From Patescibacteria group bacterium (GTDB lineage Bacteria > Patescibacteriota > Minisyncoccia > Phycocordibacterales > UBA12079), in assembly GCA_043800905.1 (NCBI GenBank), contig JAZDMO010000003.1, forward strand, positions 1-57,974: a stretch of 57,974 bases of DNA, written 5' to 3'. Within the stretch, counting starts at the first letter, position 1. Each line of letters begins with the position of its first letter. The position numbers were made by a program, and so were the translations under genes. Below the pieces are notes generated by a model. That model was not told where the DNA came from. It made no database searches and was given only the letters and a program-made list of their open reading frames with translations. Shown here piece after piece: positions 4,363-37,409 of this stretch.

Positions 4363-4491
4363 GTTTTTCTAATTTATACTCCTCAAAAGAGGAGGGCTCC
4401 TATATGGAGATTTATACATATATAATACCAAGCATAGACAATTTGTCAAGAAATAAATTAGTCAAAAGTCTGTAAAACCATAGATAAAACG

Positions 4492-4625
4492 CTGGACCTG
4501 CCTGCCGGCAGGCAGGTTGCCACGCTATCGTTCGCAATGACGAAGAAACGGATTTTGCGAAGCAAAATCCGTTACGAAAAACTTTGTTTTTCGTCTTTGC
4601 GAGGAGCCTGCGACGTGGCAATCTA
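4492..4625. repeat. Composite C: inverted pair of modular units (134 bp) with a nested GC palindrome
   Basis: CTGGA[CCTGCCTGCCGGCAGGCAGG]TTGCCACGCTATCGTTCGCAATGACG, then two small hairpins, then CGTCTTTGCGAGGAGCCTGCGACGTGGCAATCTAG. Same architecture as the in-CDS copy at 14870-15001. Confidence 0.85.
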
Positions 4626-4655
4626 GAAATAAATTTTTATGTTAAAATATTAATA

Positions 4656-6565: not shown

Positions 6566-6623
6566 AAAAAATAAAGAAAAGAGGCGATGGATTTTAGTCC
6601 ACCGCCTCTTTTCTTTATTTTTT
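6566..6623. terminator. Long hairpin terminator after the LamG gene (A-run before, T-run after; potentially bidirectional)
   Basis: AAAAAATAAAGAAAAGAGGCG...CGCCTCTTTTCTTTATTTTTT read directly. Confidence 0.65.
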
Positions 6624-6669
6624 AGAATTATAAATTATAGATTTTAAATTTTAAATTAATTTAAAAAAA

Positions 6670-6935
6670 CTCTGGACTCCTCCCGTGGCGAAAAGTAAAA
6701 CTTTTCCGTCATTGCGAGAATAAATTTTCGCAAAAATTTATTCGTGGCAACCTGCCTGCCGGCAGGCAGGTCCAGCGTCTCGTCATTGCGAATAAGGTTT
6801 TTTGATTTTTCGTCAAAAATCAAAAAACCTTATGTGGCAATCCAGCAGAAAAAATGAAAAAAAGTTGTATAATTATGACGGTCGTCAGAATTATACAACT
6901 TTTTGGTTTGTTTTTTGTTTATTTTTGGATGCTTT
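6670..6935. repeat. Repeat cluster D: two (-) modular units, the GTTGTATAATT..AATTATACAAC palindrome, and an inverted-repeat arm matching 2941-3040
   Basis: Units 6707-6775 (with nested GC palindrome at 6751-6770) and 6781-6845. Palindrome at 6863-6900. 6834-6935 is the reverse complement of 2941-3040 except for one replaced 22-24 nt segment. Confidence 0.85.
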
Positions 6936-7167
6936 TTGGTCTTTTTTAAATTTTACTTGGAGATAGTATCTCCAAGTTTTTTCGTTTATTTTTGGGGTCT
7001 TAAAAAAGCCATATTTATCCACATTTTTGTTTAAGAAAAAGGCTTTTTCGGGGTATAATTTTATATAAAGATTCTGCCTGAAAACAGGGGCGTGAATTTG
7101 TGTATAAATGGATCTTTTACCCTTATTTTTCAATGTTTAAAGAATAGCTTTTAAATAAAAATAAAAA

Positions 7168-7575
7168 ATGAAATTAAGAGAAAACATTATAAAAAAAGAT
7201 TTTGATGTTTGGAATATTCAAAAGAAAGAAATTCACAATCACGGAAGAAACAGATTATATCGTTTGAGAGATATTTGGTGGTGTAATTTGGGATTGAATA
7301 TAGGGTATGAACAAGATGGTACCGGAGAAAACAATGGGCGACCAGTTTTGGTGTTAAAAGGGTTGAGTAGAAATATTTGTTTGGTAATTCCTTTAACAAC
7401 TTCAATTGAACAACATTTTATGAGAATACCAATTGGAGAGATAGATGGTAAAAATGCTTCTGGAATAATTTCGCAAATTCGTGTGATTGATACTAAGAGG
7501 TTTGTAAATAAAATAGGAAAGATAGATAAAAAAAGATTTGATATAATTAGAAAAGCCATCAAAAACTTAATTTGA
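7168..7575 (+). CDS. MazF/PemK-family endoribonuclease toxin-like protein; no adjacent antitoxin ORF
   Basis: GYEQDG..RPVLVL ... PLTTS ... ISQIRVIDTKRFVNKIG aligns with the GSEQGG.RPVLV ... QIRTIDKQRL motifs of MazF/EndoA. Confidence 0.75.
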   Translation: MKLRENIIKKDFDVWNIQKKEIHNHGRNRLYRLRDIWWCNLGLNIGYEQDGTGENNGRPVLVLKGLSRNICLVIPLTTSIEQHFMRIPIGEIDGKNASGIISQIRVIDTKRFVNKIGKIDKKRFDIIRKAIKNLI

Positions 7576-15365: not shown

Positions 15366-16193
15366 TTTTGGGGGTTTCGCCCCCAAAAATAGCAAAAATT
15401 AAAATGGCAAATAGAGAACCGTTATTAATAAATGAATATTATCACGCTTATAACCGTGGAGCCGATAAGCGAATTATTTTTGATGATGTTTTTGATATTT
15501 TAAGATTTCTGCAAAGTATGCAGGAATTTAACTCTGTAGAACCGATAGGTAGTATTTATGAAAAAAATTATCATAATAAAGAAGAGAATGTAAATTTTGG
15601 GGGTTTCGCCCCCAAAGCTTTTAAATCAGATAGGTTAGTTAAGATAGTCGCCTATTGTTTAAATCCGAATCATTTTCATTTGATATTAAGTCCGTTGGTA
15701 GAAAACGGGATTAGTGAATTTATGAAAAGACTAGGTGGTGGTTATACTACTTATTACAATATTAAAAATAATAGAAAAGGAGTATTATTTCAAGGAGTTT
15801 TCAAATCAAAACATATTGATTCTGACTCTTATCTTAGATTTTTGAGTGCTTATGTAAATTTAAATTTTAAAGTTCATAAAAAGTTTGAAAAAAATAATGG
15901 AAAAAACCAATCGGTTTTTAAATCAAGTTGGGATGAATATCTTAATGCAAAAATTATAAAGAAAAAAGGAACTAATGAACACAAAATTATAAACAACAAA
16001 GATGATATTTGCGATAAGTCAATGATTTTATCTCACTTTAATTCGATAGAAGAATATAAAAGATTTGCAATAGAATCATTAAGAGAAATTAAAAGGAAAA
16101 GATATAATGAAGATGATATAATTAAAGATGATTTTTCTTTGTAAGAAATCATCAAATTAATTTAATGATACTTGGGGATAGTATCCCCAAGTA
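15366..16193 (+). mobile_element. RAYT/IS200-like Y1 transposase unit 1 with flanking hairpins
   Basis: Left hairpin TTTTGGGGGTTTCGCCCCCAAAA at 15366-15389. The same hairpin occurs in frame inside the CDS at 15595-15616. A different right hairpin TACTTGGGGATAGTATCCCCAAGTA lies at 16169-16193. Confidence 0.5.
15404..16144 (+). CDS. Y1 HUH transposase-like protein (IS200/RAYT family)
   Basis: YHAYNRG N-terminal motif, HUH motif NPNHFHLIL, candidate catalytic Tyr in SAYVNLN. ATG at 15404; the TTG-started extension of ORF 15368 only reads through the left hairpin. Confidence 0.8.
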   Translation: MANREPLLINEYYHAYNRGADKRIIFDDVFDILRFLQSMQEFNSVEPIGSIYEKNYHNKEENVNFGGFAPKAFKSDRLVKIVAYCLNPNHFHLILSPLVENGISEFMKRLGGGYTTYYNIKNNRKGVLFQGVFKSKHIDSDSYLRFLSAYVNLNFKVHKKFEKNNGKNQSVFKSSWDEYLNAKIIKKKGTNEHKIINNKDDICDKSMILSHFNSIEEYKRFAIESLREIKRKRYNEDDIIKDDFSL

Positions 16194-16215
16194 TTTCTGG
16201 ATAAGGGTTTGGAAT

Positions 16216-19200
16216 ATGAAAATTTTTAAAATTTTAAATAAAAATAAAAAAAAATGGTGGGCTGTTTTCTTAGTATTTTTTTTAATTGCAAATTGTGCCC
16301 AAGCAAGTTTTACTAATTTATCAGGAAATTCTTTAAATAAAGGTTTGGTGGGTTCTTGGCCTTTAGATCGACAATCTACGGGAACAAATAATTATTTTGG
16401 TTATGCCGATTTTAACAGTTCTACGGATGAAATTACTTTACCAGCTATGAGTCTTGTTAATGGAAGTTATAATTTTAGTTTGTCTTATTGGTTAAAAGCT
16501 GAAAATATTCCGACTGTTGATGATTGGACTTATGCTGATTCACCAATTAGTTTTGGCGGTGATGGTACTGGTTTTATGACTTTTGCTGATGGAGGGTCAA
16601 ATCCAAACCGATTGTCTTTTCGGGCGAATTTTGCTTCGGTTGGTTGGACTTCTCCAGTAGAATCAGGTCAGTTGAGTAATAATGTTTGGTATCATATTGT
16701 TGTTACGTTTAATACCAGTAGTGGTTGGAAAATGTATCAAGATGGTGTTTTAGTTGATTCAAATACTATGTTGAATACTTTTTCTGGAGCTACTGTTAAT
16801 AATAAAATTGGGAAGTCGGATGGTGGAACAGACAGAAGTTTCGATGGAAAAATCACAGATGTTAGATTGTATAATACAACTTTATCAGCCGCTGATGTTT
16901 TGACTCTTTCTTATGTAAGTAATATTGCAGCTTCTGTGGTTCAAAGCAATTTATTTGCTTGGTGGAAACTTAATTATGATAGTGATGATTATTCTGGAAA
17001 TAGTAGAAATGGTACTAATACAGGAGTAACAATAACAATTCCTATGACAGATGGTTATTCCTATGACAAGACTCCTTATTCAAATGATATAACTATCAGT
17101 AGTGGTGGTGCAACCGATCGTTTTGGAAAAAGTTATGGATCTACGGATTTTAATGGAACCAGTAATTATTTAGAAGTTCCTAGTAGTTCCTCTATAGATA
17201 TTAGAAGAACCATTTCTTTTTCCTTTTGGTTTTATGTGGATACTCTCCCGAGTGCGTGGTCAGCTCTCTTTTCAAAAATGGATAGTAGCGGAAGTGTTGG
17301 GTCAAGAACCTACGCTGTGTTTTTGAATACAAATGGTTATTTGCATTTAACTTCGGCTGATGCTACCGGACAAGAAACTGCTGATACTGTTGCTGGTTCA
17401 ATTCAAACAGGTCGATGGTATCACTATATGGCGGTCATTGATAGAAATAGTGGAACTCTGAAATCATATTTAAACGGTGTTCAAGCAGCTTCAGGAACGG
17501 TAAGAACTACAGATACTGTTTCAAACAGTGAGCCTTTAAATATTGGATCACACAGGGGTAGTACTTATAATTATTTTGACGGAAGAATGGAAGATGTTCT
17601 TCTTTATGACAGAGCTTTAACAGCGAACGATGTTCTTTCACTTTATGATTCTTATAATCAAAAAGTTTCTGCTGGAAATTTGAATAAAGGTTTAGCTGGC
17701 CATTGGCCTTTAGATAGTGAAAGTAACAAGGGGAGTTATGGTTATGATATTTCGACTGCGGTTTATAATTCCAATTTTAGCATAGCATCTCAAGATACCA
17801 GTCCTCGTGAGATTAATTTTAATACAGACGGTACAAGAATGTTTATGTTGGGATTCACAGGAGTAGATGTTAACGAATACCACTGTACAACCGGTTTTGA
17901 TGTTAGCACTTGTACTTATGATTCTGTTTTTAGCGTGTCTACACAGGAAATTTATCCTCAAGGTCTCGCCTTTAATCCAGATGGTACCAAGATGTTTGTT
18001 ATTGGTTATTCTGGCGATGATGTTAACGAATACCATTGTACAGTAGGTTTTGATGTTAGTACTTGTTCTTATAATTCTGTTTATAGTGTATCTAGTTATG
18101 AGACTAATCCTTCTGGAATTGATTTTAATACAGATGGTACTAAGATGTTTATTGTTGGTTATGATGGGGATGCTGTCGATGAGTATCATTGTTCCACAGG
18201 ATTTTTAGTTAGTACCTGTGCTTATGATTCTACTTATAGTGTGGCTAGTCAAGAAATCGCTCCATATTCAGTTGTTTTTAATATAGATGGAACAAAAATG
18301 TTCATTGGTGGAAATAATAGCGGTTATGTTCGCGAGTATCATTTGAGTACAGGGTTTGATGTTTCTACCGCTAGTTATGATTCATCGTTAAATGTTTCTA
18401 GTTATGACACGACACCCTTAGGTATAGCTTTTAATACTAATGGTACTAAGATGTTTGTTTCTGGTTTTGCTGGACAAGATATAAATGAATTTGATCTTGA
18501 TACTTCTAGCGTGATTATGGCTGATAAAACTCCCAACTCAAACGATGGAATTACTTTTGATGGTCCAACCTTAATCATTGATCGTTTTGGAAAAACAGAT
18601 GGAGCGATGAGTTTTAGCGGGGGGGTTACTTCGGGTGATTATATCTCTCTTGGTTCTAGCCATGTAATTGATTTAACTAGTGCTACTGTATCTTTTTGGG
18701 CGAAAAGAGATGTTTTAGTTACTACTCAAGATGGTACTAATACGGCTGGAGCTCTTAGAATTCTTTATGGGGGAACTAGTTATAAATTTTTGGATCAATG
18801 GGTGAATGATACTTATTTTCAATTTCAAGGAGAAAGGGATGTCAACAGCGAGTATTGGGCAAATATTACTTCTAGTGTCGTAGCAGACACTAATTGGCAT
18901 CATTTTGTTATTACGGCAAATAATAATGTTTTTACTTTGTATATAGATGGTGTTTATCAGGGTGTTGATAATGATTCATCTGCTGGATATACTTCGAATA
19001 CTTGTACAATTTCAGATATTGCTAAAGGGTATACTGTTGCAAATAGTTCTTATGGTTCTTATTTTGATGGAAGTCTGTCCGATATGCGTTTTTATAACAG
19101 ACCGCTTTCTGCAGCTGAAGTTAGCACCTTATATTCTTCCTACAAACCAAAAATTTCCGCTGGAAATTTAAATAAAGGTTTGGTGGGTTTTTGGCCTTTG

Positions 19201-19809
19201 AATAGTCAAAGCCAAAAATCGAGTACAGTTTATGCTGATAAGACCCCTAATTCAAACGATGGTACCGCAACTAATGGTCCAGCTCTTACTACTGGTCCAA
19301 CTGGTAAGGTGAATGATGCTTTGAGTTTTAATGGTTCAAATCAATGTATAAATATTCCTAATTCAACAGCTCTTGATAACCAAACGATTACAATTTCGGC
19401 TTGGGTAAATCCGACAGCTGATGGAAATTATTTTATTTTTGAAAAAGGAAGTGTAAACACGCAATATTCTTTCTTTTTTGAAGGCGCGTATCTTAGATTT
19501 AGAACTATGGGGGCTGCTTCTTATGATTTAGCTATTGCTAAGACGACTGCAGGAATTACAAATGGTGAATGGCATCATGTAGCAGCGACTTTCGATGGAA
19601 CCACAAAAACAATTTATGTTGATGGAGCTTATGCTACATCTATGACTTGGGCAAATACAATATCTACAAATACTTGGGGAAGTATTATTGGTTGTTATGG
19701 AGGAACCACTCCGAGTTATTTTTTAAATGGAAAAATATCAGGAGTTCGTGTCTATAATCGAGCTCTTTCAGCTGAAGAAATAAATTTGCTTTATCAAACA
19801 AAACAATAA
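16216..19809 (+). CDS. Large secreted multi-LamG-domain protein with a central array of 51-aa repeats (putative beta-propeller)
   Basis: ATG at 16216 gives MKIFKILNKNKKKWWAVFLVFFLIANCAQA (signal-like). Several LNKGL.G.WPLD ... FDG...D.R.YNR.LSA.E...LY LamG modules. Confidence 0.85.
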   Translation: MKIFKILNKNKKKWWAVFLVFFLIANCAQASFTNLSGNSLNKGLVGSWPLDRQSTGTNNYFGYADFNSSTDEITLPAMSLVNGSYNFSLSYWLKAENIPTVDDWTYADSPISFGGDGTGFMTFADGGSNPNRLSFRANFASVGWTSPVESGQLSNNVWYHIVVTFNTSSGWKMYQDGVLVDSNTMLNTFSGATVNNKIGKSDGGTDRSFDGKITDVRLYNTTLSAADVLTLSYVSNIAASVVQSNLFAWWKLNYDSDDYSGNSRNGTNTGVTITIPMTDGYSYDKTPYSNDITISSGGATDRFGKSYGSTDFNGTSNYLEVPSSSSIDIRRTISFSFWFYVDTLPSAWSALFSKMDSSGSVGSRTYAVFLNTNGYLHLTSADATGQETADTVAGSIQTGRWYHYMAVIDRNSGTLKSYLNGVQAASGTVRTTDTVSNSEPLNIGSHRGSTYNYFDGRMEDVLLYDRALTANDVLSLYDSYNQKVSAGNLNKGLAGHWPLDSESNKGSYGYDISTAVYNSNFSIASQDTSPREINFNTDGTRMFMLGFTGVDVNEYHCTTGFDVSTCTYDSVFSVSTQEIYPQGLAFNPDGTKMFVIGYSGDDVNEYHCTVGFDVSTCSYNSVYSVSSYETNPSGIDFNTDGTKMFIVGYDGDAVDEYHCSTGFLVSTCAYDSTYSVASQEIAPYSVVFNIDGTKMFIGGNNSGYVREYHLSTGFDVSTASYDSSLNVSSYDTTPLGIAFNTNGTKMFVSGFAGQDINEFDLDTSSVIMADKTPNSNDGITFDGPTLIIDRFGKTDGAMSFSGGVTSGDYISLGSSHVIDLTSATVSFWAKRDVLVTTQDGTNTAGALRILYGGTSYKFLDQWVNDTYFQFQGERDVNSEYWANITSSVVADTNWHHFVITANNNVFTLYIDGVYQGVDNDSSAGYTSNTCTISDIAKGYTVANSSYGSYFDGSLSDMRFYNRPLSAAEVSTLYSSYKPKISAGNLNKGLVGFWPLNSQSQKSSTVYADKTPNSNDGTATNGPALTTGPTGKVNDALSFNGSNQCINIPNSTALDNQTITISAWVNPTADGNYFIFEKGSVNTQYSFFFEGAYLRFRTMGAASYDLAIAKTTAGITNGEWHHVAATFDGTTKTIYVDGAYATSMTWANTISTNTWGSIIGCYGGTTPSYFLNGKISGVRVYNRALSAEEINLLYQTKQ
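17818..18510 (+). repeat. Tandem 153-bp (51-aa) coding repeats FN.DGTKMF..G..G..V.EYH...GFDVST..YDS..SVS
   Basis: Unit starts read at 17818, 17971, 18124, 18277 and 18430, a constant 153-nt period. Confidence 0.8.
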
Positions 19810-19853: not shown

Positions 19854-20712
19854 CTGGATTGCCACAGAATTTTTTAAAACAAAAATTCTTCGCAATGACG
19901 GAAAGCGAAGCGTCTCTGCGAGATTAGATTTTTTAATAAAAATCTAATCGTAGCAGTCTAGCGTTTAATTTTTTGGATTACTTTGTGATTTCAAAAGTCT
20001 GGATTCCACCCAAGCCTGCCTGCCGGCAGGCAGGGCGGACAGGTGCCACACAAGGTTTTTTGATTTTTCGTCAAAAATCAAAAAACTGTATAATTATGAC
20101 GGTCGTCATAATTATACAGTTTTTTTTTTTTGCTGGATTGCCATAGAATTTTTTAAAACAAAAAATTCTTCGCAATGACGAAAAACGAAGCGTCTCTGCG
20201 AGATTAGATTTTTTAATAAAAATCTAATCGTGGCAGTCCAGAGATTTTAAATTTAGCACTGGATTGCCACGTCAAAAATTAAGGCTCAAAAGTTTTTTAA
20301 AACTTTTGAGCCTTAATTTTTTCCTCGCAATGACGAATCTTTGGTTCGTTACGGTCCGCTTAGGGCGGACCGTCTTTGCGAGGAACAAAATGTAATGGAG
20401 TGACGAAGCAATCCAGTCTTGCACAATCACGAAGTGGTTTTTATTTCTGGATTGCCACACCGAGCACCAAAAACTTTAATTAAAGTTTTTGGTGCTCGGT
20501 TCGCAATGACGGACAAAACGAACAAAATCTGGGTTGCCACCCCCCTCATCCAGAAAAGTATCGTTGATTGTCATCAACACCAAAGAGAATAAAGGATTTG
20601 TTTAATAATAAAATAGAAAAAGAGTATTATAAATAAAAATTTATTTATAATACTTTTCTGGATGAGGGGTCGCAATGACAAATGAATGTTGGATGAAGGG
20701 GTGGAAATCTAG
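19854..20712. repeat. Repeat array G: about 860 bp of intergenic DNA made almost entirely of modular palindrome units
   Basis: Units: 19854-19900 (+), 19911-19961 (-), degenerate 19998-20050, palindrome 20086-20119, 20133-20180 (+), 20191-20241 (-), 20259-20335 (+), 20371-20416 (-), 20447-20511 (+), 20529-20679 (+, 151 bp). 19854-19961 is nearly duplicated at 20133-20241. Confidence 0.9.
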
Positions 20713-23060: not shown

Positions 23061-24164
23061 ATGAATGAAAATGAAACAAAAAAAATTAGAGTTGCAATAA
23101 ACGGATTTGGAAGAATTGGTCGAGTTTTTTTGAAATTACTTTTGGAAAAAGAAAAATTTCTGACTCAAGATTCTTTGGGTTTAAAAAAAGAAATTGAAAT
23201 TGTTGCGATTAATGATCTTTCAGAAATAGAAAATTTAGCTTATCTATTAAAATATGATACTGCTAACGTTTTAAAAAACACTGATTTAGATTTAGAAATA
23301 ATTAAATCAGAAAAAGAAAAAAAGATTAGAATAGGTAAGATGGAAATTTTGTTTTTGAGTGAACCAGACCCAAACTATTTACCTTGGAAAGATTTAGATA
23401 TTGATGTGGTGTTAGAAGCTACAGGAGTTTTTAATAGCTATCAGAAAGCCAGTGCTCATTTACAAGCTGGGGCTAAAAGAGTTGTTTTAACCGCTCCTGC
23501 TAAGGGTGATAAATCTGGGGTAGCAATTCCTGATTATGGGGTAATAGGGAAGACTATTTTGATGGGGATTAATGAAGACGATTTAAAAACTTGTCAGATA
23601 AGTGCTAACGGTTCCTGTACGACTAATGCTGTTAGTCCTGTATTACAAATTTTAAAACAAAAAATTGGAATAAAAAAAGCAATTTTAAATACAATTCACT
23701 CTTATACTGCTACCCAAAAAATTATTGATTCGCCTGATAAAAAGGATTTTCGCAAGGGAAGAGCTGGAGCACAAAATATTATTCCTACTAGCACTGGGGC
23801 AGCTATCGCAACCACTTTAGCTATAAAAGATTTGGTAGGAAAATTTGATGGCATGGCTGTGCGTGTTCCTGTTATTTTAGGTTCTTTGGTGGACTTAACT
23901 TTTGTTACAGATAGAAATACTACCGAAGAGGAAATTAATCAGATTTTAATTGATGCTTCAAAAGAAAAGAAATGGAAAAATATTTTTGGAGTGACTAATG
24001 AACCAATCGTTTCTTCAGATGTTATTGGTAATAAATTTGCTTCTCTAGTAGATTTATCTTTAACTAAAGTGGTTGATCGTGATTTAGTAAAAGTTTTGAT
24101 ATGGTATGATAATGAAACAGGGTATGCTAATACTTTAATTGAACATATTCTAAAAGCTTTTTAA
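23061..24164 (+). CDS. gap: Glyceraldehyde-3-phosphate dehydrogenase
   Basis: INGFGRIGR NAD-binding motif and the SCTTN active site. Confidence 0.9.
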   Translation: MNENETKKIRVAINGFGRIGRVFLKLLLEKEKFLTQDSLGLKKEIEIVAINDLSEIENLAYLLKYDTANVLKNTDLDLEIIKSEKEKKIRIGKMEILFLSEPDPNYLPWKDLDIDVVLEATGVFNSYQKASAHLQAGAKRVVLTAPAKGDKSGVAIPDYGVIGKTILMGINEDDLKTCQISANGSCTTNAVSPVLQILKQKIGIKKAILNTIHSYTATQKIIDSPDKKDFRKGRAGAQNIIPTSTGAAIATTLAIKDLVGKFDGMAVRVPVILGSLVDLTFVTDRNTTEEEINQILIDASKEKKWKNIFGVTNEPIVSSDVIGNKFASLVDLSLTKVVDRDLVKVLIWYDNETGYANTLIEHILKAF

Positions 24165-24649
24165 TGCAAAATAATATGATTGAACATAAAAAAATTTTAA
24201 TATCTTCAGACCATGCTGGTTTTGAATTGAAAGAGGAATTAATTTCTTATATAAAAGATATTGGTTTAGAGGTTGAAGATTGTGGACCTTTTGAATATAA
24301 GTCAGAGGATGATTATCCTGATTTTATTAAACCAGTTGCGCAAAAAATTTCAGAAAATCCAAGTTTAAAAGCGATTATTATTGGTAAGTCAGGACAAGGA
24401 GAAGCTATGTGCGCAAATCGTTTTAAAAAAGTGCGAGCTATGGTTTATAATTGTTTAAATTTGAATATTATAAAATTATCAAGGGAAGATAATGATTCAA
24501 ATATTCTTTCTTTAGGAGCTGGTTTTATTACTACCGAAGATGCTCAAGAAGCTGTGAGAGTGTGGTTAGAAACACCGTTTTTAGGAGAAGAAAGACATTT
24601 AAGAAGAATCCATAAAATAGATGAAGACATTAAAACTATAGAATATTAA
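24164..24649 (+). CDS. rpiB: Ribose-5-phosphate isomerase B (RpiB/LacA/LacB family)
   Basis: SSDHAGFELK, GKSGQGEAMCANR motifs. TAATG overlap with gap. Confidence 0.85.
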   Translation: MQNNMIEHKKILISSDHAGFELKEELISYIKDIGLEVEDCGPFEYKSEDDYPDFIKPVAQKISENPSLKAIIIGKSGQGEAMCANRFKKVRAMVYNCLNLNIIKLSREDNDSNILSLGAGFITTEDAQEAVRVWLETPFLGEERHLRRIHKIDEDIKTIEY

Positions 24650-24654
24650 AAGAA

Positions 24655-24827
24655 ACGAATTTTGGTTTTGCTAAAATTTGTCTTTGCGAGAAGGGATAAT
24701 TTAGTAACCCGGTTACTGAATAAAAACTAACACGGATGCCTAAAGAGATTTAAATTTATAAACTAAAGTAACCGGGTTACTAAATTATTACTTTCGTGGC
24801 AACCTGCCTGCCGGTAGGCAGGTCCAG
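24655..24827. repeat. Repeat H: long (-) modular unit with a nested GC palindrome, between rpiB and rpe
   Basis: ACGAATTTTGG..CTAAAATTTGT hairpin, TGTCTTTGCGAG, long stem GATAATTTAGTAACCCGGTTACT...AGTAACCGGGTTACTAAATTAT, then CGTGGCAA[CCTGCCTGCCGGTAGGCAGG]TCCAG. Confidence 0.75.
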
Positions 24828-24853
24828 AAATAAGTAGTTCAAAAATTAATATA

Positions 24854-25555
24854 ATGAAAAAGACCGAAATAATTCCTGCGGTTTTACCAAAAACTTTTGA
24901 GGAATTGAGGGAAAAATTAAATAAAATAAAAAAAGCTTATGATGTTTTAGAAATAGAACATCGGGTTGTTCAAATTGATGTTTGTGAAGCTACTTTGAAT
25001 AAAAGTTTTGATCTTTTTAGAAAAGAAATTGAAGAATTGAGAGATAAAACCATTGATTTTGAAATAGAGTTAGATTTTATTACTAAAGATTTTAAAACAA
25101 GTATCGATGAATGGATTGATCTAGGTGTCCAAAGAGTGATAATTCATTATGCAAATTTAAAACCTTGGAATATTTTTCCTTGGATTTTTAAATTTAATAA
25201 ATTTGTTAAAAAAAATTCAGATAAAATTGAAATTGGTTTAGGAATTAATTTGGAAACACCTTTGAATAAAATTTTGCCTTATTTAAAAAAGGTTAAATTT
25301 GTTCAATTTATGGGAATTAAAAATATTGGGCATCAGGGACAAATTTTTGATGTTGTGGTTTTAGAAAAAATAAAGGAATTAAGAAAAATAAATTCAGAAA
25401 TAATCGTTTCTGTAGATGGGGGAATAAATTTAGATAATGCCCAGTCTGTTATTATGGCAGGAGCTAATCGTTTAGTAATTGGTTCAGCAATTTTGAATGA
25501 AAATAGTTCGGTAGAAGAAATCGTGAGAAATATAAAAAGTTTTAATAACTTTTAA
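24854..25555 (+). CDS. rpe: Probable ribulose-phosphate 3-epimerase (divergent)
   Basis: C-terminal VSVDGGINLDNA...AGANRLVIGSAI is typical of RPE. Lies between rpiB and tkt. The N-terminal half is divergent. Confidence 0.55.
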   Translation: MKKTEIIPAVLPKTFEELREKLNKIKKAYDVLEIEHRVVQIDVCEATLNKSFDLFRKEIEELRDKTIDFEIELDFITKDFKTSIDEWIDLGVQRVIIHYANLKPWNIFPWIFKFNKFVKKNSDKIEIGLGINLETPLNKILPYLKKVKFVQFMGIKNIGHQGQIFDVVVLEKIKELRKINSEIIVSVDGGINLDNAQSVIMAGANRLVIGSAILNENSSVEEIVRNIKSFNNF

Positions 25556-25568
25556 TTTAGTTAAAACT

Positions 25569-26387
25569 ATGCAAGAAAAAATAGAGGAGTTAGAAAAAAA
25601 AGCAAAAATTGTTCGGGAAGAAGTTTTGAAAATGGTTTCTCAGGCTGGTTCAGGTCATATTGCTGGCCCCTTAAGTACCATCGATATTTTGGTAGCTTTA
25701 TATTTTTCTGTTATGAAGTATGACGTTCAAAATCCAGATTGGAAAGATCGTGACAGGTTGATTTTATCTCATGGACATGTATGTCCCGCTCTTTATGCGG
25801 TTATGGCGGAAGCTGGATATTTTCCTAAAATTGAACTACAAAATTTAAGAAAATTTGGATCTAATTTGCAAGGACATCCACATCGAGAGTGGTTGAGGGG
25901 ATTGGAAACTAGTTCAGGGCCTTTAGGTGAAGGTTTATCGCAAGCGGTAGGAATGGCTTTGGCTGAAAAAATTAATAATTTAGAAAGCGAAAAGAAATTT
26001 TTTTGTTTAATGTCTGATGGAGAATTGCAAGAGGGTCAAGTTTGGGAAGCTTTAATGTTAGCGGGTCATAAAAAGATAAATAATTTAATCGCAATTATTG
26101 ATAGAAATAATATTCAAATTAGTGGCAATACAGAAGATGTGGTTTCTTTGGAACCTTTGCGAGATAAATTAGAAGCTTTTAATTGGGATGTCTTAGAAAT
26201 AAATGGTCATGATTTTGAACAAATACTAGGAGCTTTTGTTACCGCTAAAGCAATTTTGGATAAACCTGTAGTTATTATCGCCCATACCATTGCTGGTAAG
26301 GGTTTTAAAGAATTAGAAGATGATTATCATTGGCATGGCAAAGCCCCTAGTCAAAAATTAGTTGAAAAAATCTTAAAAAACAATTAG
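25569..26387 (+). CDS. tkt: Transketolase, N-terminal subunit (split form)
   Basis: GSGHIAGPLS, LSHGH, MSDGELQEGQVWEA (ThDP-binding) motifs. Its 272 aa correspond to the N-terminal section only. Confidence 0.85.
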   Translation: MQEKIEELEKKAKIVREEVLKMVSQAGSGHIAGPLSTIDILVALYFSVMKYDVQNPDWKDRDRLILSHGHVCPALYAVMAEAGYFPKIELQNLRKFGSNLQGHPHREWLRGLETSSGPLGEGLSQAVGMALAEKINNLESEKKFFCLMSDGELQEGQVWEALMLAGHKKINNLIAIIDRNNIQISGNTEDVVSLEPLRDKLEAFNWDVLEINGHDFEQILGAFVTAKAILDKPVVIIAHTIAGKGFKELEDDYHWHGKAPSQKLVEKILKNN

Positions 26388-26399
26388 AGCAATATAATC

Positions 26400-27213
26400 T
26401 GCGGAGGTTGAACCTCCGCATTTTTAAATCTTTACTTATTTATTTAAATTTATTATGAAAAAACCTCCGTTTTTAAATGATCATATCTATCACATATATA
26501 ATCGTGGGGTAGAAAAAAGAGATGTTTTTATGGATGATCATGATTATTTTCAATTTATTCATGATTTGTTTGAATTTAATGATAAGAACCCCGTTAATAA
26601 ATTACAGGAAGACAATTTTTCAATAATATCTACGGAGGTTCAACCTCCGCAGATAAGAAGAAAGAGAAATAATGATCGAGAGTTATTGGTAGAAATATTA
26701 GCTTTTGTGTTGATGCCAAATCATTTTCACTTGTTATTAAAACAAAAAAATGATGATGGGGTTGTAAAGTTTATGCAAAAAATAGGAACAGGCTACACCA
26801 TGAGCTTTAATAAAAAATATGATAGAGTTGGAAGCTTGTTTCAGGGAAGATTTAAAGCTGTTTTAGTAGAAAGAGAAGATCATCTTCTTTTTCTTCCTAA
26901 CTATATTCATTTAAATCCCATCAAAATAAAAAGGGATTTTTCTGTTAATAAAAATTTAATTTCTGCAGTTAGTGATTTAGAATTTTTAGAAAAATATCGT
27001 TGGAGTAGTTTACCTGATTATCTTGGTAAAAAGAATTTTCCATCGGTTATTTCAAAAGAATTTTTATTAGAAATTATAGGGAATCCAAGAGAATATAGAA
27101 AAGAGTTAAAAACTTGGTTGAAAAAAAATTATGATTTTAAAGCTATATTTGATGAAATAGTGTAGAGAATATGATACATTTTAAGACCTTCGGAGGTTGA
27201 ACCTCCGAAGGTC
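26400..27213 (+). mobile_element. RAYT/IS200-like Y1 transposase unit 2 with flanking hairpins
   Basis: TGCGGAGGTTGAACCTCCGCA at 26400-26420 (left). ATCTACGGAGGTTCAACCTCCGCAGAT at 26629-26655 (in frame, inside the CDS). GACCTTCGGAGGTTGAACCTCCGAAGGTC at 27185-27213 (right). Confidence 0.55.
26455..27165 (+). CDS. Y1 HUH transposase-like protein (IS200/RAYT family), paralog of 15404-16144
   Basis: YHIYNRG, HUH motif MPNHFHLLL, YIHLNPIK candidate catalytic Tyr motif. Confidence 0.8.
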   Translation: MKKPPFLNDHIYHIYNRGVEKRDVFMDDHDYFQFIHDLFEFNDKNPVNKLQEDNFSIISTEVQPPQIRRKRNNDRELLVEILAFVLMPNHFHLLLKQKNDDGVVKFMQKIGTGYTMSFNKKYDRVGSLFQGRFKAVLVEREDHLLFLPNYIHLNPIKIKRDFSVNKNLISAVSDLEFLEKYRWSSLPDYLGKKNFPSVISKEFLLEIIGNPREYRKELKTWLKKNYDFKAIFDEIV

Positions 27214-27250
27214 CATATATTTTTTAATGAATCTTTTTTAATAATTTGCT

Positions 27251-28390
27251 ATGATTGAAAAAATGAAAAATAAAGAAAAACCTGTCTGTCAACGAGGTAG
27301 AAAAATATTTGTTGGAATGTCAGGCGGTGTGGACTCTTCTCTTACCGCGGCTTTGTTATTGAAAGAAGGTTATGATGTGACCGGTGTTTTCATTAAAGTT
27401 TGGCAACCAGATTTTGTAGAGTGTTCTTGGCGAGAGGATAGATTGGATGCTATGCGAGTGTGTGCTAAATTAGGTATTAATTTTTTGGATTTAGATTTGG
27501 AAGAAGTATACAAGAGAGAAGTTTTTGATTATATGATAGAAGAATACAAAAATGGCAGAACTCCTAATCCAGATGTGATGTGTAATAAGAAAATTAAATT
27601 CGGAGCTTTTTTGGATTTTGCTTTAAAAAATGGAGTGGATTTTGTGGCTACAGGTCATTATGTTCGTTTAGAAGATAAAAAACTTTTAGCTGGAATTGAT
27701 GAAAATAAAGATCAGTCATATTTTTTATGGACACTTACTCAAGAACAATTAAAACATTGTATTTTCCCGATTGGACAATATACCAAACCAGAGGTACGGA
27801 AATTAGCTAAAAAATTTGAACTTTCTACCGCCGATAAAAAAGACAGTCAGGGTTTGTGTTTTGTGGGAAAAGTAGATATGAAAGATTTTTTAGAAAGATT
27901 TATTCCACAAAAAAAGGGAGATGTTTTGAATGAAAAAGGAAAAGTCATCGGCCACCATGATGGTATCCACTATTTCACCTTAGGACAAAGGCATGGTTTT
28001 GAAATTATTGAAAAAGGAACAGAAGACAAACCTTATTATGTAGTGGCTAAAGATTTAGAAAAAAATATTTTAATTGTGTCTAATCAAGACAAACAAAACT
28101 TTACAGAAAATTTAAAAAGAAAAGAAATTAAATTAGAAAATATAAATTGGACTTTAGGTGAGAAACCAAATTTCTTCACTTCGTCTCTGCGAGGAGATCA
28201 CGACGAAGCAGTCCAGAAAAAATATCAAGCCAGAATAAGATACAGACAGCCTTTGCAAGAATGTGTTTTGGTTGAAAAAGACAGAATTTTTTCGGTTGTT
28301 TTTGATATTCCACAAAAAAACGTGGCTTCAGGACAATCTGTGGTAATTTATGATGAAGATATTTGTTTGGGGGGTGGGGTGATTGTTTAA
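27251..28390 (+). CDS. mnmA: tRNA 2-thiouridine(34) synthase MnmA
   Basis: PP-loop VGMSGGVDSS, DQSYFL, C-terminal RIRYRQ and LGGG motifs. Confidence 0.9.
   Translation: MIEKMKNKEKPVCQRGRKIFVGMSGGVDSSLTAALLLKEGYDVTGVFIKVWQPDFVECSWREDRLDAMRVCAKLGINFLDLDLEEVYKREVFDYMIEEYKNGRTPNPDVMCNKKIKFGAFLDFALKNGVDFVATGHYVRLEDKKLLAGIDENKDQSYFLWTLTQEQLKHCIFPIGQYTKPEVRKLAKKFELSTADKKDSQGLCFVGKVDMKDFLERFIPQKKGDVLNEKGKVIGHHDGIHYFTLGQRHGFEIIEKGTEDKPYYVVAKDLEKNILIVSNQDKQNFTENLKRKEIKLENINWTLGEKPNFFTSSLRGDHDEAVQKKYQARIRYRQPLQECVLVEKDRIFSVVFDIPQKNVASGQSVVIYDEDICLGGGVIV
28182..28216. repeat. Minimal (-) modular unit in frame inside mnmA
   Basis: CGTCTCTGCGAGGAGATCACGACGAAGCAGTCCAG, translated as SSLRGDHDEAVQ. Confidence 0.75.
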
Positions 28391-28414
28391 AACATAAAAA
28401 TTTAAGAATATTAA

Positions 28415-28450
28415 ACAAAGGGAAATCGCTTTGCGATTTCCCTTTGTTTT
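28415..28450 (+). terminator. Intrinsic terminator after mnmA
   Basis: ACAAAGGGAAATCGC-ttt-GCGATTTCCCTTTGT followed by TTTT. Confidence 0.6.
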
Positions 28451-28492
28451 AAGACTTTTATGTTCTCGTGTCTCCATGTTATAATATTTAAC

Positions 28493-29335
28493 ATGAACGA
28501 CGAAATCTATATTATAAAGGCGAATGGAGAAAAGGAGCTCTTTGATGTTTCAAAATTAGAAAATTCTTTACGAAGAGCGGGAGCTGATTTGAAAACGATT
28601 AATATTATTGCTGATGAAATTTCAGAAAATTTGGAACAAAATATGACTACGGCAGAAATTTATCGCAAAGCTTTTGAACTTTTAAATCAAACTGAGAGTG
28701 TTCATGCTATAAGATATTCTGTTAAAAAAGCAGTTATGGATTTGGGACCCAACGGATTTTCTTTTGAGGATTTTGTAGGAGCGATGTTTCGTGAAATGGG
28801 GTATGCTGTTTTATTAAGACAGTTGGTTAGAGGTTTGTGCGTAGAACATGAAGTTGATTTTATTGCAAAAAATAATGAAAAATTTTTAATGGGTGAAGTA
28901 AAATTTCATAATGAGCAGGGAATTAAATCAGACTTAAAAGTTGTTTTGTATGTTAAAGAAAGATTTGATGATATCCAAAAAGGAGAATTTTTTAGAAACA
29001 TTGATAAAAATTTAAAATTTGAAAAATGGTTAATTACTAATACTAAATTTACTTCTCAAGCAATTCAATATGCTGAATGTTCTCGAGAAATTCAATTAAT
29101 GAGCTGGAATTATCCAATGAACAATAGTTTGTTTAATTTAATTGATAGAGCAAAACTTTATCCGATTACTTGTTTAAATTCGTTAAGTTCTCATGAAAAA
29201 CAATTGTTTTTAAATAAAAATATAGTATTGTGTAGAGAAATAAAAAGAGGGGGCGTTCGATTATTTAATTTAGTAGGAATCAAAAAAGAAAAACAAGAAG
29301 AAATTTTAAATGAGATTAATAATTTAACAAAATAA
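28493..29335 (+). CDS. ATP-cone domain fused to an Mrr-type (PD-(D/E)XK) restriction-endonuclease-like domain
   Basis: IIKANGEKELFDVSKLENSLRRAG is ATP-cone-like. FEDFVGAMFREMGY...VDFIA...GEVKF matches the Mrr catalytic core. ATG at 28493 is preferred over 28460. Confidence 0.6.
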   Translation: MNDEIYIIKANGEKELFDVSKLENSLRRAGADLKTINIIADEISENLEQNMTTAEIYRKAFELLNQTESVHAIRYSVKKAVMDLGPNGFSFEDFVGAMFREMGYAVLLRQLVRGLCVEHEVDFIAKNNEKFLMGEVKFHNEQGIKSDLKVVLYVKERFDDIQKGEFFRNIDKNLKFEKWLITNTKFTSQAIQYAECSREIQLMSWNYPMNNSLFNLIDRAKLYPITCLNSLSSHEKQLFLNKNIVLCREIKRGGVRLFNLVGIKKEKQEEILNEINNLTK

Positions 29336-29337
29336 TT

Positions 29338-29889
29338 ATGAGTTATAACTTTAAAAGTTTAAAAGATGGATTAACAAATATTGAAGCTTGGTTAGTTAAA
29401 GAATTTTCTAGTATACGAACAGGGATGGCATCTATGTCTTTATTAGATAATATTAGAGTTGAAAGTTACGGTTCATTTATATCAATTAATCAAGTGGCTA
29501 ATGTTGTTTTGGAAGATCCTAAAACCTTAAGAATTGTTCCTTGGGATGCTTCTCAAATTAAATCTATTGAAAAAGCTCTAACAGAAGCTGATTTGGGGGT
29601 TTCTGTGTCTGTGGATGGGAAAGGAATTCGATTAGCTTTTCCTGATTTAACCGGAGAAAGAAGAGAATCTTTGGTTAAAATGGCTAAAGCTAAATTAGAG
29701 CAGGCAAAGGTTTCTGTTAGGGGTGAAAGAGACCGAGTGTGGAATGAAATTCAAGAAGAAGAAAAAAAAGGAGGAATGGGCCAAGATGATAAGTTTAGAT
29801 ATAAAGAAGAAATGCAAAAAATTATTGATGAAAAAAATGAGGTTTTGCTAGGGTTGTTTAATAAGAAAGAAAAAGAAATTAAAGGATAA
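29338..29889 (+). CDS. frr: Ribosome recycling factor
   Basis: LDNIRVESYGS, PWD, PDLTGERRESLVKMAK motifs. Confidence 0.9.
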   Translation: MSYNFKSLKDGLTNIEAWLVKEFSSIRTGMASMSLLDNIRVESYGSFISINQVANVVLEDPKTLRIVPWDASQIKSIEKALTEADLGVSVSVDGKGIRLAFPDLTGERRESLVKMAKAKLEQAKVSVRGERDRVWNEIQEEEKKGGMGQDDKFRYKEEMQKIIDEKNEVLLGLFNKKEKEIKG

Positions 29890-37277: not shown

Positions 37278-37409
37278 CGTCATTGCGAATTTACGAAGCA
37301 ATCTGCCTGCCGGCAGGCAGGTCCAGCGTTTTTTTAATTAAATCACTTCGTGATTTCACAAGTCTGGATTACCGCGTCGTTCCGTTACACTTCACTTTTC
37401 GCAATGACG
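37278..37409. repeat. Repeat cluster I: (-) minimal unit with nested GC palindrome, junction module, (+) unit
   Basis: CGTCATTGCGAATTTACGAAGCAAT[CTGCCTGCCGGCAGGCAGG]TCCAG at 37278-37326. AAATCACTTCGTGATTTCACAAGT at 37340-37363. CTGGATTACCGC...TTCGCAATGACG at 37364-37409. Confidence 0.8.

Follow-up and report, generated by a model that had tools for sequence, protein, structure and literature searches.

A 35-nt stretch inside the mnmA gene of a Patescibacteria genome is very probably a copy of a CGTC-tagged REP that has inserted into the coding sequence. The window in which it lies is the whole stretch of DNA analyzed here, 57,974 nt of contig JAZDMO010000003.1, and all positions are counted from its first letter. 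The repeat family itself is already published as the CGTC-tagged REP super-family, with documented in-frame 'decorated' proteins (PMC3733652); what is new is the host gene, the phylum and an apparently recurrent use of one site, and this is otherwise a further case of a known phenomenon. The window has a single occurrence of CGTCTCTGCGAGGAGATCACGACGAAGCAGTCCAG, and 100 shuffles gave 0 matches; exactly as the original prediction had it, the sequence lies within mnmA at 28182–28216 on the forward strand, where it is translated in frame as SSLRGDHDEAVQ. The locus is composed of the following features.

27251–28390, + strand: host gene mnmA (tRNA 2-thiouridine(34) synthase), an intact ORF of 379 aa
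28175–28216, + strand: whole inserted segment of 42 nt by comparison with empty-site alleles, made up of TTCACTT and the 35-nt unit, with boundaries set by analogy with positions 4793–4834 of a second carrier locus (L207) and uncertain by a few bases
28182–28216, + strand: probable CGTC-tagged REP unit of 35 nt, made up of a CGTC head, TCTGC stem half, GAG, core GAGATCACGA, CGAA, GCAGT stem half and CCAG tail
28187–28190, + strand: 5′ half of the closing stem (CTGC), pairing with 28208–28211
28208–28211, + strand: 3′ half of the closing stem (GCAG), pairing with 28187–28190

The host ORF matches Pfam PF03054, PF20259 and PF20258 as well as PDB entries 2hma/2der/9hlv (E about 1e-90), and the invariant catalytic columns are present, including the PP-loop SGGVDS and both conserved cysteines. 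Judged from its sequence and a structural model, the ORF appears to have every feature of an MnmA (PP-loop, PRC-barrel, C-terminal barrel, cysteines and fold). The gene had been described as essential, which holds for B. subtilis but not for E. coli, where it is dispensable (PMC13602947). Relative to empty-site alleles, the 42-nt segment replaces one orthologue codon (AAT/AGT). The gene is thus longer by 39 nt, or 13 residues, and stays in frame; the mnmA frame reads F-F-T-S-S-L-R-G-D-H-D-E-A-V-Q-K-K-Y across the insert. The 35-nt unit encodes (S)SLRGDHDEAVQ in this frame and contains no stop codon. The insertion had originally been proposed from 29 residues counted between the W and RYR landmarks, against 16 in E. 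coli and B. subtilis MnmA, with the excess of 12–13 residues equated with the length of the element. The count of 29 is correct and the close orthologues do have 16, giving an excess of 13 residues (39 nt); the equation with element length stands for the 13 residues gained but not for the unit by itself, as the net 39 nt consist of the 35-nt unit plus seven T-rich bases in place of one codon.

Base composition and codon choice both set the unit apart. It has 60% G+C versus approximately 31% in the surrounding region, and it is spelled with codons that the genome seldom uses (TCG 4%, CTG 1%, GTC 5%), with a probability of about 7e-10 that the peptide would be spelled in this way under host codon usage. 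Comparing the window gene with that of the second carrier lineage, codons for the same residue are identical in 11/11 cases inside the element versus 157/258 (61%) outside it (P about 0.004), in genes that are 75% identical. Codon constraint thus fails to account for the nucleotide match, which removes one ground on which the original prediction was to fall, and the family resemblance of the mnmA unit is far beyond chance.

Approximately 23 units of the family are found in the window, in eight places. They share a common plan, with CGTC[AT][CT]TGCGAG as the 5′ head, CG[AT][AG]GCA[AG]TCCAG as the tail and a hairpin core that varies from unit to unit, and the mnmA unit carries head and tail at the spacing typical of the family. 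The 12-nt head motif occurs 23 times at up to one mismatch versus 0.09 expected; one of the 23 begins with TGTC rather than CGTC. Nearly all complete units end with CCAG, with CTAG or TCTAG in three. Unit cores span from 4 to >50 nt and include long AT-rich palindromes and nested second palindromes. Apart from the mnmA copy, the units are located as follows.

3029–3317: intergenic cluster of five units (3029–3077 −, 3088–3154 +, 3172–3200 −, 3209–3256 −, 3265–3317 −)
4016–4626: units at 4016–4044 + (29 nt, minimal), 4492–4542 − and 4592–4626 + (35 nt, minimal), the last being the closest relative of the mnmA copy within the window
6707–6845, + strand: two tandem units (6707–6775, 6781–6845)
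14870–15001: head-to-head pair (14870–14900 −; 14943–15001 +) in the giant ORF 7679–15361, in frame as ..LDCHAIARKDEE..SSLRADKSTLGMGACDVAVQK
19854–20511: intergenic cluster of seven units with two head-to-head dimers (19854–19900 − with 19911–19961 +; 20133–20180 − with 20191–20241 +)
37278–37409: units at 37278–37326 + and 37364–37409 −
52798–52848, + strand: unit with CCTGCCTGCCGGCAGACAGG core

Head-to-head pairs are thus seen at 3029/3088, 14870/14943, 19854/19911 and 20133/20191. The pair at 14870–15001 splits the C-terminal Peptidase_S74 domain of its ORF, and with these two units as the other case, the mnmA copy is a second independent in-frame insertion of the family, in agreement with the original prediction. 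The termini had also been held to be compatible with an open frame, and the unit ends are indeed free of stop codons in 5/6 frames. A scan of the whole window with Rfam at gathering thresholds returned zero families.

Covariation supports the formation of hairpins by these units. At one pair of the closing stem in the window units, C..G is found in 6, T..A in 17 and a discordant pair in 0, and across loci the stem variants are compensatory (ATTGC/GCAAT 182, TCTGC/GCAGT 10, ATCGC/GCGAT 3, ACTGC/GCAGT 1, ATTCT/AGAAT 1). The first stem positions are (A/T)T...AAT in 17/23 window units and TC...GT in the mnmA copy and five others; in the TC...GT units, T faces T at the first position and a compensatory C-G pair occupies the second. 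Core stems vary in a compensatory manner too, and their loops are mostly C-GNA-G, a known DNA mini-hairpin motif (PMC13037366). The mnmA copy has four Watson–Crick pairs (CTGC/GCAG), followed by GA/GA, G-C, GA/GA and G-C around a 4-nt ATCA loop, and it reaches an 11-position stem only when the tandem G.A pairs are counted. In nearest-neighbor DNA folding (ViennaRNA), minimal units score no higher than shuffles, with z = −0.6 to +1.3 for the mnmA copy, so that the hairpin case rests on covariation and the known G.A and GNA motifs rather than on folding energies. The description of the minimal mnmA unit as palindromic is therefore weak, the unit being barely palindromic by standard folding. A hammerhead or a kink-turn at the GA...GAA junction was considered but discarded, as there is no CUGA box, three-way junction or 3-nt bulge.

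CGTC-tagged REPs were described by Di Nocera, De Gregorio & Rocco (2013, BMC Genomics 14:522; PMC3733652) as units with an unpaired 5′ CGTC (or TGTC; CCTC variants allowed) tag, a self-complementary body and an unpaired 3′ CCA tail. Stems are 8–9 bp with loops of 4–5 nt, and the first two stem positions are complementary A-T (PMC3733652). The many dispersed copies are mostly intergenic, with head-to-head dimers predominating and some copies intragenic and in frame; they occur in five phyla, mostly in alpha-proteobacteria, and no transposase has been linked to them (PMC3733652). The super-family includes Rickettsia RPE-4/-6 (CGTC-4 and CGTC-1, respectively) and Neisseria dRS3 (CGTC-1) (PMC3733652). 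REP-decorated tRNA and DNA-repair enzymes recur in the same survey, which argues that many REPs act as RNA and in whose list of decorated genes mnmA is absent (PMC3733652). The mnmA unit starts with CGTC at 28182 and ends with ...GCAGT-CCAG at its 3′ side, the family is multi-copy and mostly intergenic with head-to-head dimers predominating (about 23 units in eight places), and the Y1 transposase genes of the window are not flanked by the repeats. Canonical units of 30 and 36 nt, retrieved from Bradyrhizobium, sphingomonads, Legionella and others, have a head and tail identical to those in the window. Unlike the published units, those of the window have a closing stem of 4–5 Watson–Crick pairs followed by a GA/GA junction and a core of 4 to >50 nt, the mnmA copy is the TCTGC/GCAGT variant with an unpaired first stem position, and the host is a Patescibacteria genome. 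The core type of the mnmA copy is also found at unrelated loci in Balneola, Flavipsychrobacter, Legionellales, Absconditabacterales and another Patescibacteria MAG, and in run X8 it is 5–10 times deeper than its flanks; both observations point to a multi-copy sequence type that could insert repeatedly.

Like the mnmA unit, Rickettsia palindromic elements are palindromic, sit in frame in housekeeping genes and add a peptide without destroying the protein (PMC10969869), but RPE-1 is about 100–150 bp long and confined to Rickettsia, whereas the mnmA unit is 35 nt (42 nt with prefix) and resides in a free-standing ultra-small bacterium of another phylum. A link to RPE-4/RPE-6 is suggested by the classification in PMC3733652 and by a unit with matching ends on a Rickettsia-endosymbiont contig (L063). 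The REPIN/RAYT and E. coli REP/BIME systems share short hairpins, a 4-nt unpaired tag, inverted doublets of two slightly different unit types and a genome that also encodes an HUH Y1 protein family; however, their tag is GTAG rather than CGTC, and RAYT-linked REPs are usually lineage-specific, whereas the CGTC unit type is nearly identical across phyla. Neisseria dRS3, by its CGTC-1 classification in PMC3733652, has the CGTC head, AT-initiated stem and CCA tail. Its stem sequence is another one, and it forms large mosaic intergenic arrays. MITEs (ERIC, Nezha, QMITE, others) are also small, non-autonomous and structured, with occasional in-frame fusion to host ORFs (PMC10969869). The CGTC unit is far shorter than a typical MITE and has neither transposon-type terminal inverted repeats nor a target-site duplication: in the mnmA copy, inverted symmetry is limited to the 4–5-bp closing stem, and there is no direct repeat. 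Full-text literature searches with the repeat as a DNA string or as translated peptides returned chance primer matches only.

Alignment of MnmA homologues shows that the insert peptide is present only where the nucleotide element is present, as the original prediction implied. In 117/119 homologues there is no insert and the sequence reads PD-LN-KKY (pattern P-[DEN]-[LF]-x-K-K-Y), encoded in the empty-allele DNA as CCA GAT TTA AAT AAA AAA TAT. Alignments with PDB entries open a 10–12-residue gap at the same site, and the Pfam C-terminal domain of the window protein takes 88 residues over 76 profile positions. The only other carrier lineage of the 13-residue insert among the 119 homologues is P0002 (loci L001/L207), which carries TCGTCTCTGCGAGGAGGTCACGACGAAGCAGTCCAG; 35/36 bases are identical to the window unit, versus 75% for the remaining gene. 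A search for more carriers with the C-terminal 94 residues gave 10 short fragments, none with the insert. In a neighbor-joining tree, P0002 groups with the insert-free P0015, P0004 and P0021 (80–82% amino-acid identity) on both sides of the site; its identity to the window protein is 74%, and the window protein is approximately 74% identical to all those relatives. A recombinant patch, in which the C-terminal domain would have been transferred between carriers, was considered and rejected: downstream of the site, P0002 is 85% identical to P0015/P0004 and 68% to the window. The MnmA of P0004 has a different unit, in another frame, in another loop of the protein.

Empty sites were also recovered from metagenomes, as short Logan contigs from relatives of the P0002 lineage. 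Contigs from runs X6 and X7 join position 4792 of L207 to 4835 with AAT between them, which corresponds to an empty site (PEFNKKY), and run X6 holds filled and empty forms together. The X7 contig may be an assembly chimera of two strains, since its upstream part is identical while its downstream part is 14% different. The empty allele reads GAA TTT AAT AAA and the filled one GAA TTT TTTGTTT-unit AAA, so the AAT is replaced. The junction is not clean, with seven extra T-rich bases before the CGTC tag and an FF(T/V) prefix common to both carriers, and comparison of the empty and filled alleles revealed no flanking direct repeat or target-site duplication.

The AF2 model of the window MnmA (mean pLDDT 90; TM-score 0.85–0.89 to 2hma and 2det) places the insert as coil with pLDDT of about 73–76 and no secondary structure, between strands 286–296 and 321–324. 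In this model the 13 added residues connect strands one and two of the C-terminal beta-barrel as a coil, a surface loop of the kind that had been expected, and the PP-loop and catalytic cysteines are unaffected. The loop corresponds to residues 308–320 of the ORF and 304–316 of the model, from which the first four ORF residues are absent. The mnmA copy is probably a tolerated passenger in a gene that presumably still works, and a survivor of insertions of which others would have been removed by selection because they broke the frame, introduced a stop codon or hit a structured region.

Since P0002 has a near-identical unit at the same codon while its nearer relatives and co-occurring strains are empty, we consider it more probable that the unit was gained twice, separately, at a site that is permissive or preferred than that one old gain was followed by repeated exact losses. 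It is unlikely that a single ancient insertion in the ancestor of the window and P0002 lineages was lost exactly in most descendants (P0015, P0021, P0004, P0003 and others), with the unit staying nearly unchanged because the family sequence is strongly constrained. The filled alleles do share codon position, orientation and frame, and the FF(T/V) prefix found in both is a hint of shared ancestry; the prefix has diverged at about the gene-wide rate (6/10 bases identical), and with a core type that is nearly identical across phyla, 35/36 identity is no proof of a recent event. However, P0002 is nested among its insert-free relatives on either side of the site, an even closer empty allele co-occurs with it, and the 117 empty alleles all keep the L/F-x-KKY spacing, which would require many exact losses. 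Moreover, as the filled allele has no AAT, excising the unit alone would not restore the empty sequence. It is quite improbable that the insert was co-opted and is under selection, whether through a loop contact (tRNA or a sulfur-relay partner) or as a hairpin in mRNA or DNA with a role in message stability, translational pausing or supercoiling. Conservation of the unit at all synonymous sites between two lineages, the two or three separate REP insertions in MnmA loops and the recurrent decorated tRNA and DNA-repair enzymes and RNA-acting REPs of PMC3733652 would fit such a role, but intergenic copies of the core type in unrelated phyla are equally conserved, so that the conservation need not reflect mnmA function. 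The loop is also confined to 2/119 lineages, with close relatives lacking it, and is of low confidence in the model. Repeats are classic sites of assembly error, and the window organism is found in a single shallow run (X1, depth 2) whose contig ends at 28150, before the unit. Even so, an assembly error that placed a repeat within mnmA, or a chance likeness between a native loop and the repeat, is exceedingly improbable: independent assemblies of the other lineage (L001 from ENA; L207 from a 594-kb contig) have this structure too, contigs of runs X6, X8, X9 and X10 show it with no differences, the ORF stays open with a length gain divisible by three, and the probability of chance is negligible.

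The window encodes two IS200-like Y1_Tnp genes, at 26455–27165 and 15368–16144 (Pfam 1.7e-8 and 2.5e-7), and placement of the unit by the neighboring Y1 (HUH) transposase at 26455–27165, as in a REP/RAYT (REPIN) system, was weighed as a mechanism. The units nearest to the two genes are the mnmA unit, 1017 bp downstream of this one, and the in-frame dimer of the giant ORF, 367 bp upstream of the other; the family has head-to-head doublets as REPINs do, and GNA-loop hairpins would suit an enzyme acting on single-stranded DNA. Nonetheless, CGTC units flank neither gene, as a REPtron would require, and the Y1 genes are instead bracketed by private hairpins of their own (GGAGGTT[GC]AACCTCC three times; TGGGGGTTTCGCCCCCA twice). 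Only the general Y1_Tnp Pfam model is passed, with NCBIfam REP_Tyr_transpos NF047646 giving 49.6 and 21.4 bits, below its cutoff of 80. At 80 homologous Y1 loci the head motif occurs at 0.037 per kb versus 0.41 per kb in the window, and in 120 unit-bearing loci no Y1 match was found, either with tblastn (none outside the window) or with an HMM of 73 homologues against 5745 ORFs. With no Y1 in unit-bearing loci and Y1 loci almost free of units, and with no transposase linked to CGTC REPs in the literature (PMC3733652), the Y1 gene is rejected as the preferred mechanism and is a very unlikely agent of the insertion. Comparison of Y1 homologue loci and unit-bearing loci yielded no mobilizing enzyme. 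Our tentative working guess is that the family moves as a hairpin of single-stranded DNA that a trans-acting enzyme copies; somewhat less likely still, template switching between the flanks, T-rich on the 5′ side and A-rich on the 3′ side, may have brought in a copy from another locus, which would explain the replaced codon and the absent target-site duplication.

A broader proposition is that CGTC-REP units land non-randomly in coding DNA, one type having entered the same mnmA codon two or more times in distant Patescibacteria, with orientation and frame unchanged, and another unit a different loop in a third lineage. We regard this as doubtful. Were it true, it would imply targeted or hot-spot insertion, for instance by recognition of a T-tract/A-tract junction or by a replication-linked template switch, or alternatively selection for decorating the tRNA-binding barrel of MnmA, and it would provide a natural filled/empty allele pair for working out CGTC REP mobilization. 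The junctions available are those of an allele with the unit, a co-occurring allele that lacks it and another lineage with the unit at that codon. To our knowledge, no transposase has ever been tied to the CGTC REP class, which makes such allele pairs raw material on how the class spreads.

CGTC-tagged REPs, mainly alpha-proteobacterial as described in 2013, also occur in abundance in a Patescibacteria genome that is ultra-small and AT-rich, where they decorate a core translation-fidelity enzyme. For annotation, the 13-residue loop of MnmA and peptides of the forms SLRG..EA(I/V)Q, RHCE..TKQS, VIAR..RSSP and LDCF..LAMT should be read as repeat-derived rather than as family features, as such peptides can mislead alignments, domain boundaries and gene calls.

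The CGTC unit in question, a copy of a repeat family with a CGTC head, a variable hairpin core and a CCAG tail, occurs once in the window and lies in frame in mnmA, as the original prediction had stated.

28182-28216, + strand: CGTC unit CGTCTCTGCGAGGAGATCACGACGAAGCAGTCCAG, inside ORF 27251-28390
27251-28390: mnmA host ORF, 379 aa

The host ORF contains all three Pfam domains of tRNA 2-thiouridylase (PF03054, PF20259 and PF20258) and matches the solved MnmA structures 2hma, 2der and 9hlv with E about 1e-90. Across the site its frame reads ...INWTLGEKPN-FFTSSLRGDHDEAV-QKKYQARIRYRQ, and the G+C content is 60% in the unit versus about 31% in the surrounding DNA. We aligned 119 MnmA homologues that are 56-73% identical and for the most part are named as MnmA of Pacebacteria or Patescibacteria; 117 of them carry P-[DEN]-[LF]-x-K-K-Y, and in these W and RYR are separated by 16 residues. 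The window protein has 29 residues in that interval, an excess of exactly 13, which bears out the spacing difference first proposed. HMMER alignments against E. coli, B. subtilis and S. pneumoniae MnmA likewise open a gap of 10-12 residues at this position, and the DNA of relatives at four loci (L204, L205, L002 and L003) shows the empty allele, CCA GAT TTA AAT AAA AAA TAT. Among the 119 homologues the insert recurs only in P0002 (PE-FFVSSLRGGHDEAV-QKKY), the MnmA of a second carrier, and among related genomes it is found solely where the nucleotide element occurs. Codon constraint can be excluded as the cause of the nucleotide match, because orthologues lack the peptide and because the codons TCG, CTG, CGA, CAC, GAC, GTC and CAG of the unit are rare in the window genome (product of relative frequencies about 7e-10). 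The finding is genuine, and its initial interpretation is supported.

The head CGTC[AT][CT]TGCGAG has 23 occurrences in the window at up to 1 mismatch, versus 0.09 expected, and the tail GCA[AG]TCCAG is likewise enriched. Pairing of heads and tails gives about 23 CGTC units, on both strands and in eight places, with cores from 4 nt to >50 nt; the long cores are perfect palindromes rich in AT, and minimal units measure 29-35 nt. Head-to-head pairing is seen for several units, two slightly different unit types making up each pair. Head position 6 (T/C) covaries with the tail (A/G) in 17 T..A and 6 C..G units with 0 discordant (about 1e-5 by an exact test calculated by hand, a figure inflated by kinship of the copies). 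One pair lies in frame in the 2560-residue ORF 7679-15361, read as ..LDCHAIARKDEE..SSLRADKSTLGMGACDVAVQK, making the mnmA copy the second in-frame case, as predicted. This pair splits the C-terminal Peptidase_S74 intramolecular-chaperone domain of the ORF; downstream of the pair, the alignment to the domain profile is confined to positions 14-57.

3172-3200 (-): minimal unit, no nested palindrome
3265-3317 (-): unit with nested CCTGCCTGCCGGCAGGCAGG
4016-4044: minimal unit
4492-4542 (-): unit with nested CCTGCCTGCCGGCAGGCAGG
4592-4626: minimal unit
6707-6775 (+): unit with nested CCTGCCTGCCGGCAGGCAGG
14870-14900 (-): minimal unit, in frame in ORF 7679-15361, no nested palindrome
14943-15001 (+): unit in frame in ORF 7679-15361
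37278-37326 (+): unit with nested CCTGCCTGCCGGCAGGCAGG

The second palindrome, CCTGCCTGCCGGCAGGCAGG, has 7 copies in the window and is nested in unit tails, with GCAA before it and TCCAG after it. Units that differ only in its presence, namely 3265-3317 and 14870-14900 (CGTC.TTGCGAGCGATAGCGTGGCAA^TCCAG) and 37278-37326 and 3172-3200, are internal filled/empty pairs in which a repeat has inserted within a repeat. An NYN-domain gene (3350-3955) and a PemK/MazF-type toxin gene (7168-7575) also lie between the densest clusters (2931-4626 and 6619-6940).

The window family falls within the CGTC-tagged REPs, a class that Di Nocera et al. described in 2013 (PMC3733652). Members of this class carry CGTC as an unpaired tag and CCA as their tail, form mostly head-to-head dimers, and are known from five phyla, alpha-proteobacteria above all. 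In that scheme CGTC-1 corresponds to Neisseria dRS3 and Rickettsia RPE-6, and CGTC-4 to RPE-4 (PMC3733652). In a head-N(0-30)-tail scan of one genome per species, the matches listed, a lower bound, include units in Bradyrhizobium, sphingomonads, Methylobacterium, Legionella, Coxiellaceae, Bacteroidales, Melainabacteria, Clostridia, Acidobacteria and a Rickettsia endosymbiont, the commonest forms among them being CGTCATTGCGAGCG[N]AGCGAAGCAATCCAG (30 nt) and CGTCATTGCGAGGAGCGAAGCGACGAAGCAATCCAG (36 nt). A relaxed scan recovered compensatory stem variants (ATTGC/GCAAT 182, TCTGC/GCAGT 10, ATCGC/GCGAT 3, ACTGC/GCAGT 1, ATTCT/AGAAT 1), and the core stems vary in the same manner (GC/GC, GGC/GCC, AGCC/GGCT, GACC/GGTC, CCGC/GCGG), showing that the hairpin is kept by compensatory change. 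Minimal units receive no significant score under standard energy models. Core loops are mostly C-GNA-G, and GCGNAGC is known as the classical DNA mini-hairpin of extraordinary stability (PMC13037366). From these sequences, the architecture would comprise a CGTC tag, a 5-bp stem, a GA/GA(A) junction, a variable hairpin closed by G-C, and the CCAG tail.

In-frame intragenic CGTC REPs have been documented in repair genes, tRNA synthetases and truB, and in one case, the Xanthomonas recB genes, REPs lie 'about at the same site' (PMC3733652). The decorated-gene table of that study does not contain mnmA/trmU, and our literature search found no paper linking REPs and Patescibacteria. The mnmA copy is a fresh instance of the known REP/RPE-decorated proteins, new in gene and phylum and with an apparently recurrent site. 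Family units occur nearby in related genomes with the mnmA insert and in those lacking it alike, so that a genome with the family need not have this insertion.

The most useful by-product of the mnmA case is a filled/empty allele pair (mnmA with and without the unit) from public runs containing the P0002 organism, whose mnmA is present on two contigs, L001 (1.35 kb) and L207 (594 kb). In two public sequencing runs (X6 and X7) a contig links L207 position 4792 to 4835 via AAT, giving CCA GAA TTT AAT AAA AAA TAT (PEFNKKY); the filled form is also present in X6 and is the sole form in X8-X10. These empty-site contigs show that the filled allele differs from the empty one in having TTTGTTT and the 35-nt unit in place of the AAT codon (net +39 nt), and comparison of the two alleles reveals no target-site duplication. 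The X7 contig is identical to the filled allele (L207 4600-4899) over 193 nt upstream and differs at 9/65 bases downstream; it may be a genuine recombinant, broken at the REP site, or a chimera that the de Bruijn graph made from two strains. When 241 million metagenome records were scanned for any unit tail joined directly to the KKY-ARIRYR codons, L207 was the sole match, and 185,579 genomes gave 0 matches.

The P0002 and window units differ at 1/36 bases, versus 75% nucleotide and 74% amino-acid identity for the whole genes; same-residue codons are identical at 11/11 positions inside the unit and 157/258 elsewhere (P about 0.004), and the 10 bases directly upstream have diverged (TTCTTCACTT versus TTTTTTGTTT). 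This near-identity cannot date the event, because the core type GAGGAG[AG]TCACGACGAAGCA is a multi-copy sequence type spanning phyla, found at other loci in Balneola, Flavipsychrobacter, Legionellales, Absconditabacterales and another Patescibacteria MAG, with k-mers at 5-10 times flank depth in X8. P0002 is not the sister of the window protein; its nearest relatives, P0015, P0021 and P0004 (80-82%), lack the insert, and the grouping is the same upstream and downstream of the site, which leaves no sign of a recombinant patch. We favour two separate gains at one site as the probable history over a single ancient gain, which would entail many exact losses and appears unlikely; the remaining weight falls on allele transfer or unresolved scenarios.

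What is established for the insertion itself is a family member within coding sequence, with the frame kept, empty alleles in existence and no target duplication. Our best, tentative guess is that a trans-acting enzyme may have copied the unit in the form of a single-stranded DNA hairpin. The alternative, to which we give somewhat less weight, is a replication-linked template switch from one flank to the other (T-rich on the 5′ side, A-rich on the 3′ side), which would explain the replaced codon. Two IS200-like Y1 transposase genes are each close to one of the two in-frame sites.

15368-16144: IS200-like Y1 gene
15369-15385 and 15598-15614: private G+C-rich palindrome TGGGGGTTTCGCCCCCA, 2 copies (start and internal)
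26455-27165: IS200-like Y1 gene
26403-26417, 26634-26648 and 27192-27206: private G+C-rich palindrome GGAGGTT[G/C]AACCTCC, 3 copies (52 bp before the start; in the ORF, read TEVQPPQ; 27 bp past the stop)

As movers of CGTC units these genes are unlikely candidates: both score under the cutoff of the model for REP-associated tyrosine transposases (RAYT), CGTC units flank neither, each has its own private hairpins, and 80 homologous loci are nearly devoid of units. This agrees with the published lack of a dedicated transposase, none associated with CGTC REPs being known (PMC3733652). The upstream-to-internal palindrome spacing is about 230 nt in both genes, and neither palindrome occurs elsewhere in the window (0.01-0.02 expected); the arrangement looks like a REPtron/'TIRtron', unrelated to CGTC units. 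The annotated N-termini MEVEPPQ.. of two MnmA homologues, P0023 and P0037, are the translated GGAGGTTGAACCTCC palindrome of the window Y1 gene, and are probably upstream hairpins absorbed by over-long gene calls.

In an AlphaFold model (85-sequence alignment; mean pLDDT 90, pTM 0.87; numbering that of the ORF minus 4) the insert is a coil with pLDDT of about 73-76 between C-terminal barrel strands 286-296 and 321-324, the beta-barrel loop that had been anticipated. Its superposition on 2hma, 2det and 2deu gives TM-scores of 0.85-0.89, and in the alignment the columns of the PP-loop and of both conserved cysteines are invariant. The unit lacks a stop in 5/6 frames, in line with the proposal that its termini are compatible with an open frame. 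We infer that the insert would be a tolerated surface decoration of MnmA.

A third MnmA decorated by a REP is P0004 (Ca. Pacebacteria GCA_030636105.1, L002 10826-10975), where the insertion occupies a second site. Its gene carries a different, 47-nt CGTC unit, CGTCTCTGCGAGAAGTGGAGCAATAGCGAAACGACGAAGCAGTCCAG, preceded by a hairpin GGCGAGGC-TTC-GCCTCGCC and read in another frame as IVSARSGAIAKRRSSP (..GRGFASPIVSARSGAIAKRRSSP..), in a variable linker before the C-terminal barrel. The gene order of window 24164-29889 (ribulose-phosphate epimerase, transketolase-N, mnmA, ATP-cone/Mrr-like gene, frr) is shared with two Pacebacteria genomes (L002 and L205), except that the Y1 gene 26455-27165, between the transketolase gene and mnmA, is found in the window only.

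In the giant ORF 7679-15361, which encodes a tail-fibre-like or surface-fibre protein, the GGCAACGTCGGCATCGGGACGAC motif (G-N-V-G-I-G-T-T) recurs about 22 times, once every 200-400 nt, and a similar repeat-bearing ORF at 8-610 extends past the left window end. ORF 16165-19809 contains four to five copies of a 153-nt (51-codon) tandem repeat at 17818-18429 (60-76% identity), and shares LamG-type 'FDG.I..VR.YNRALS' segments with ORF 4584-6563 and others.
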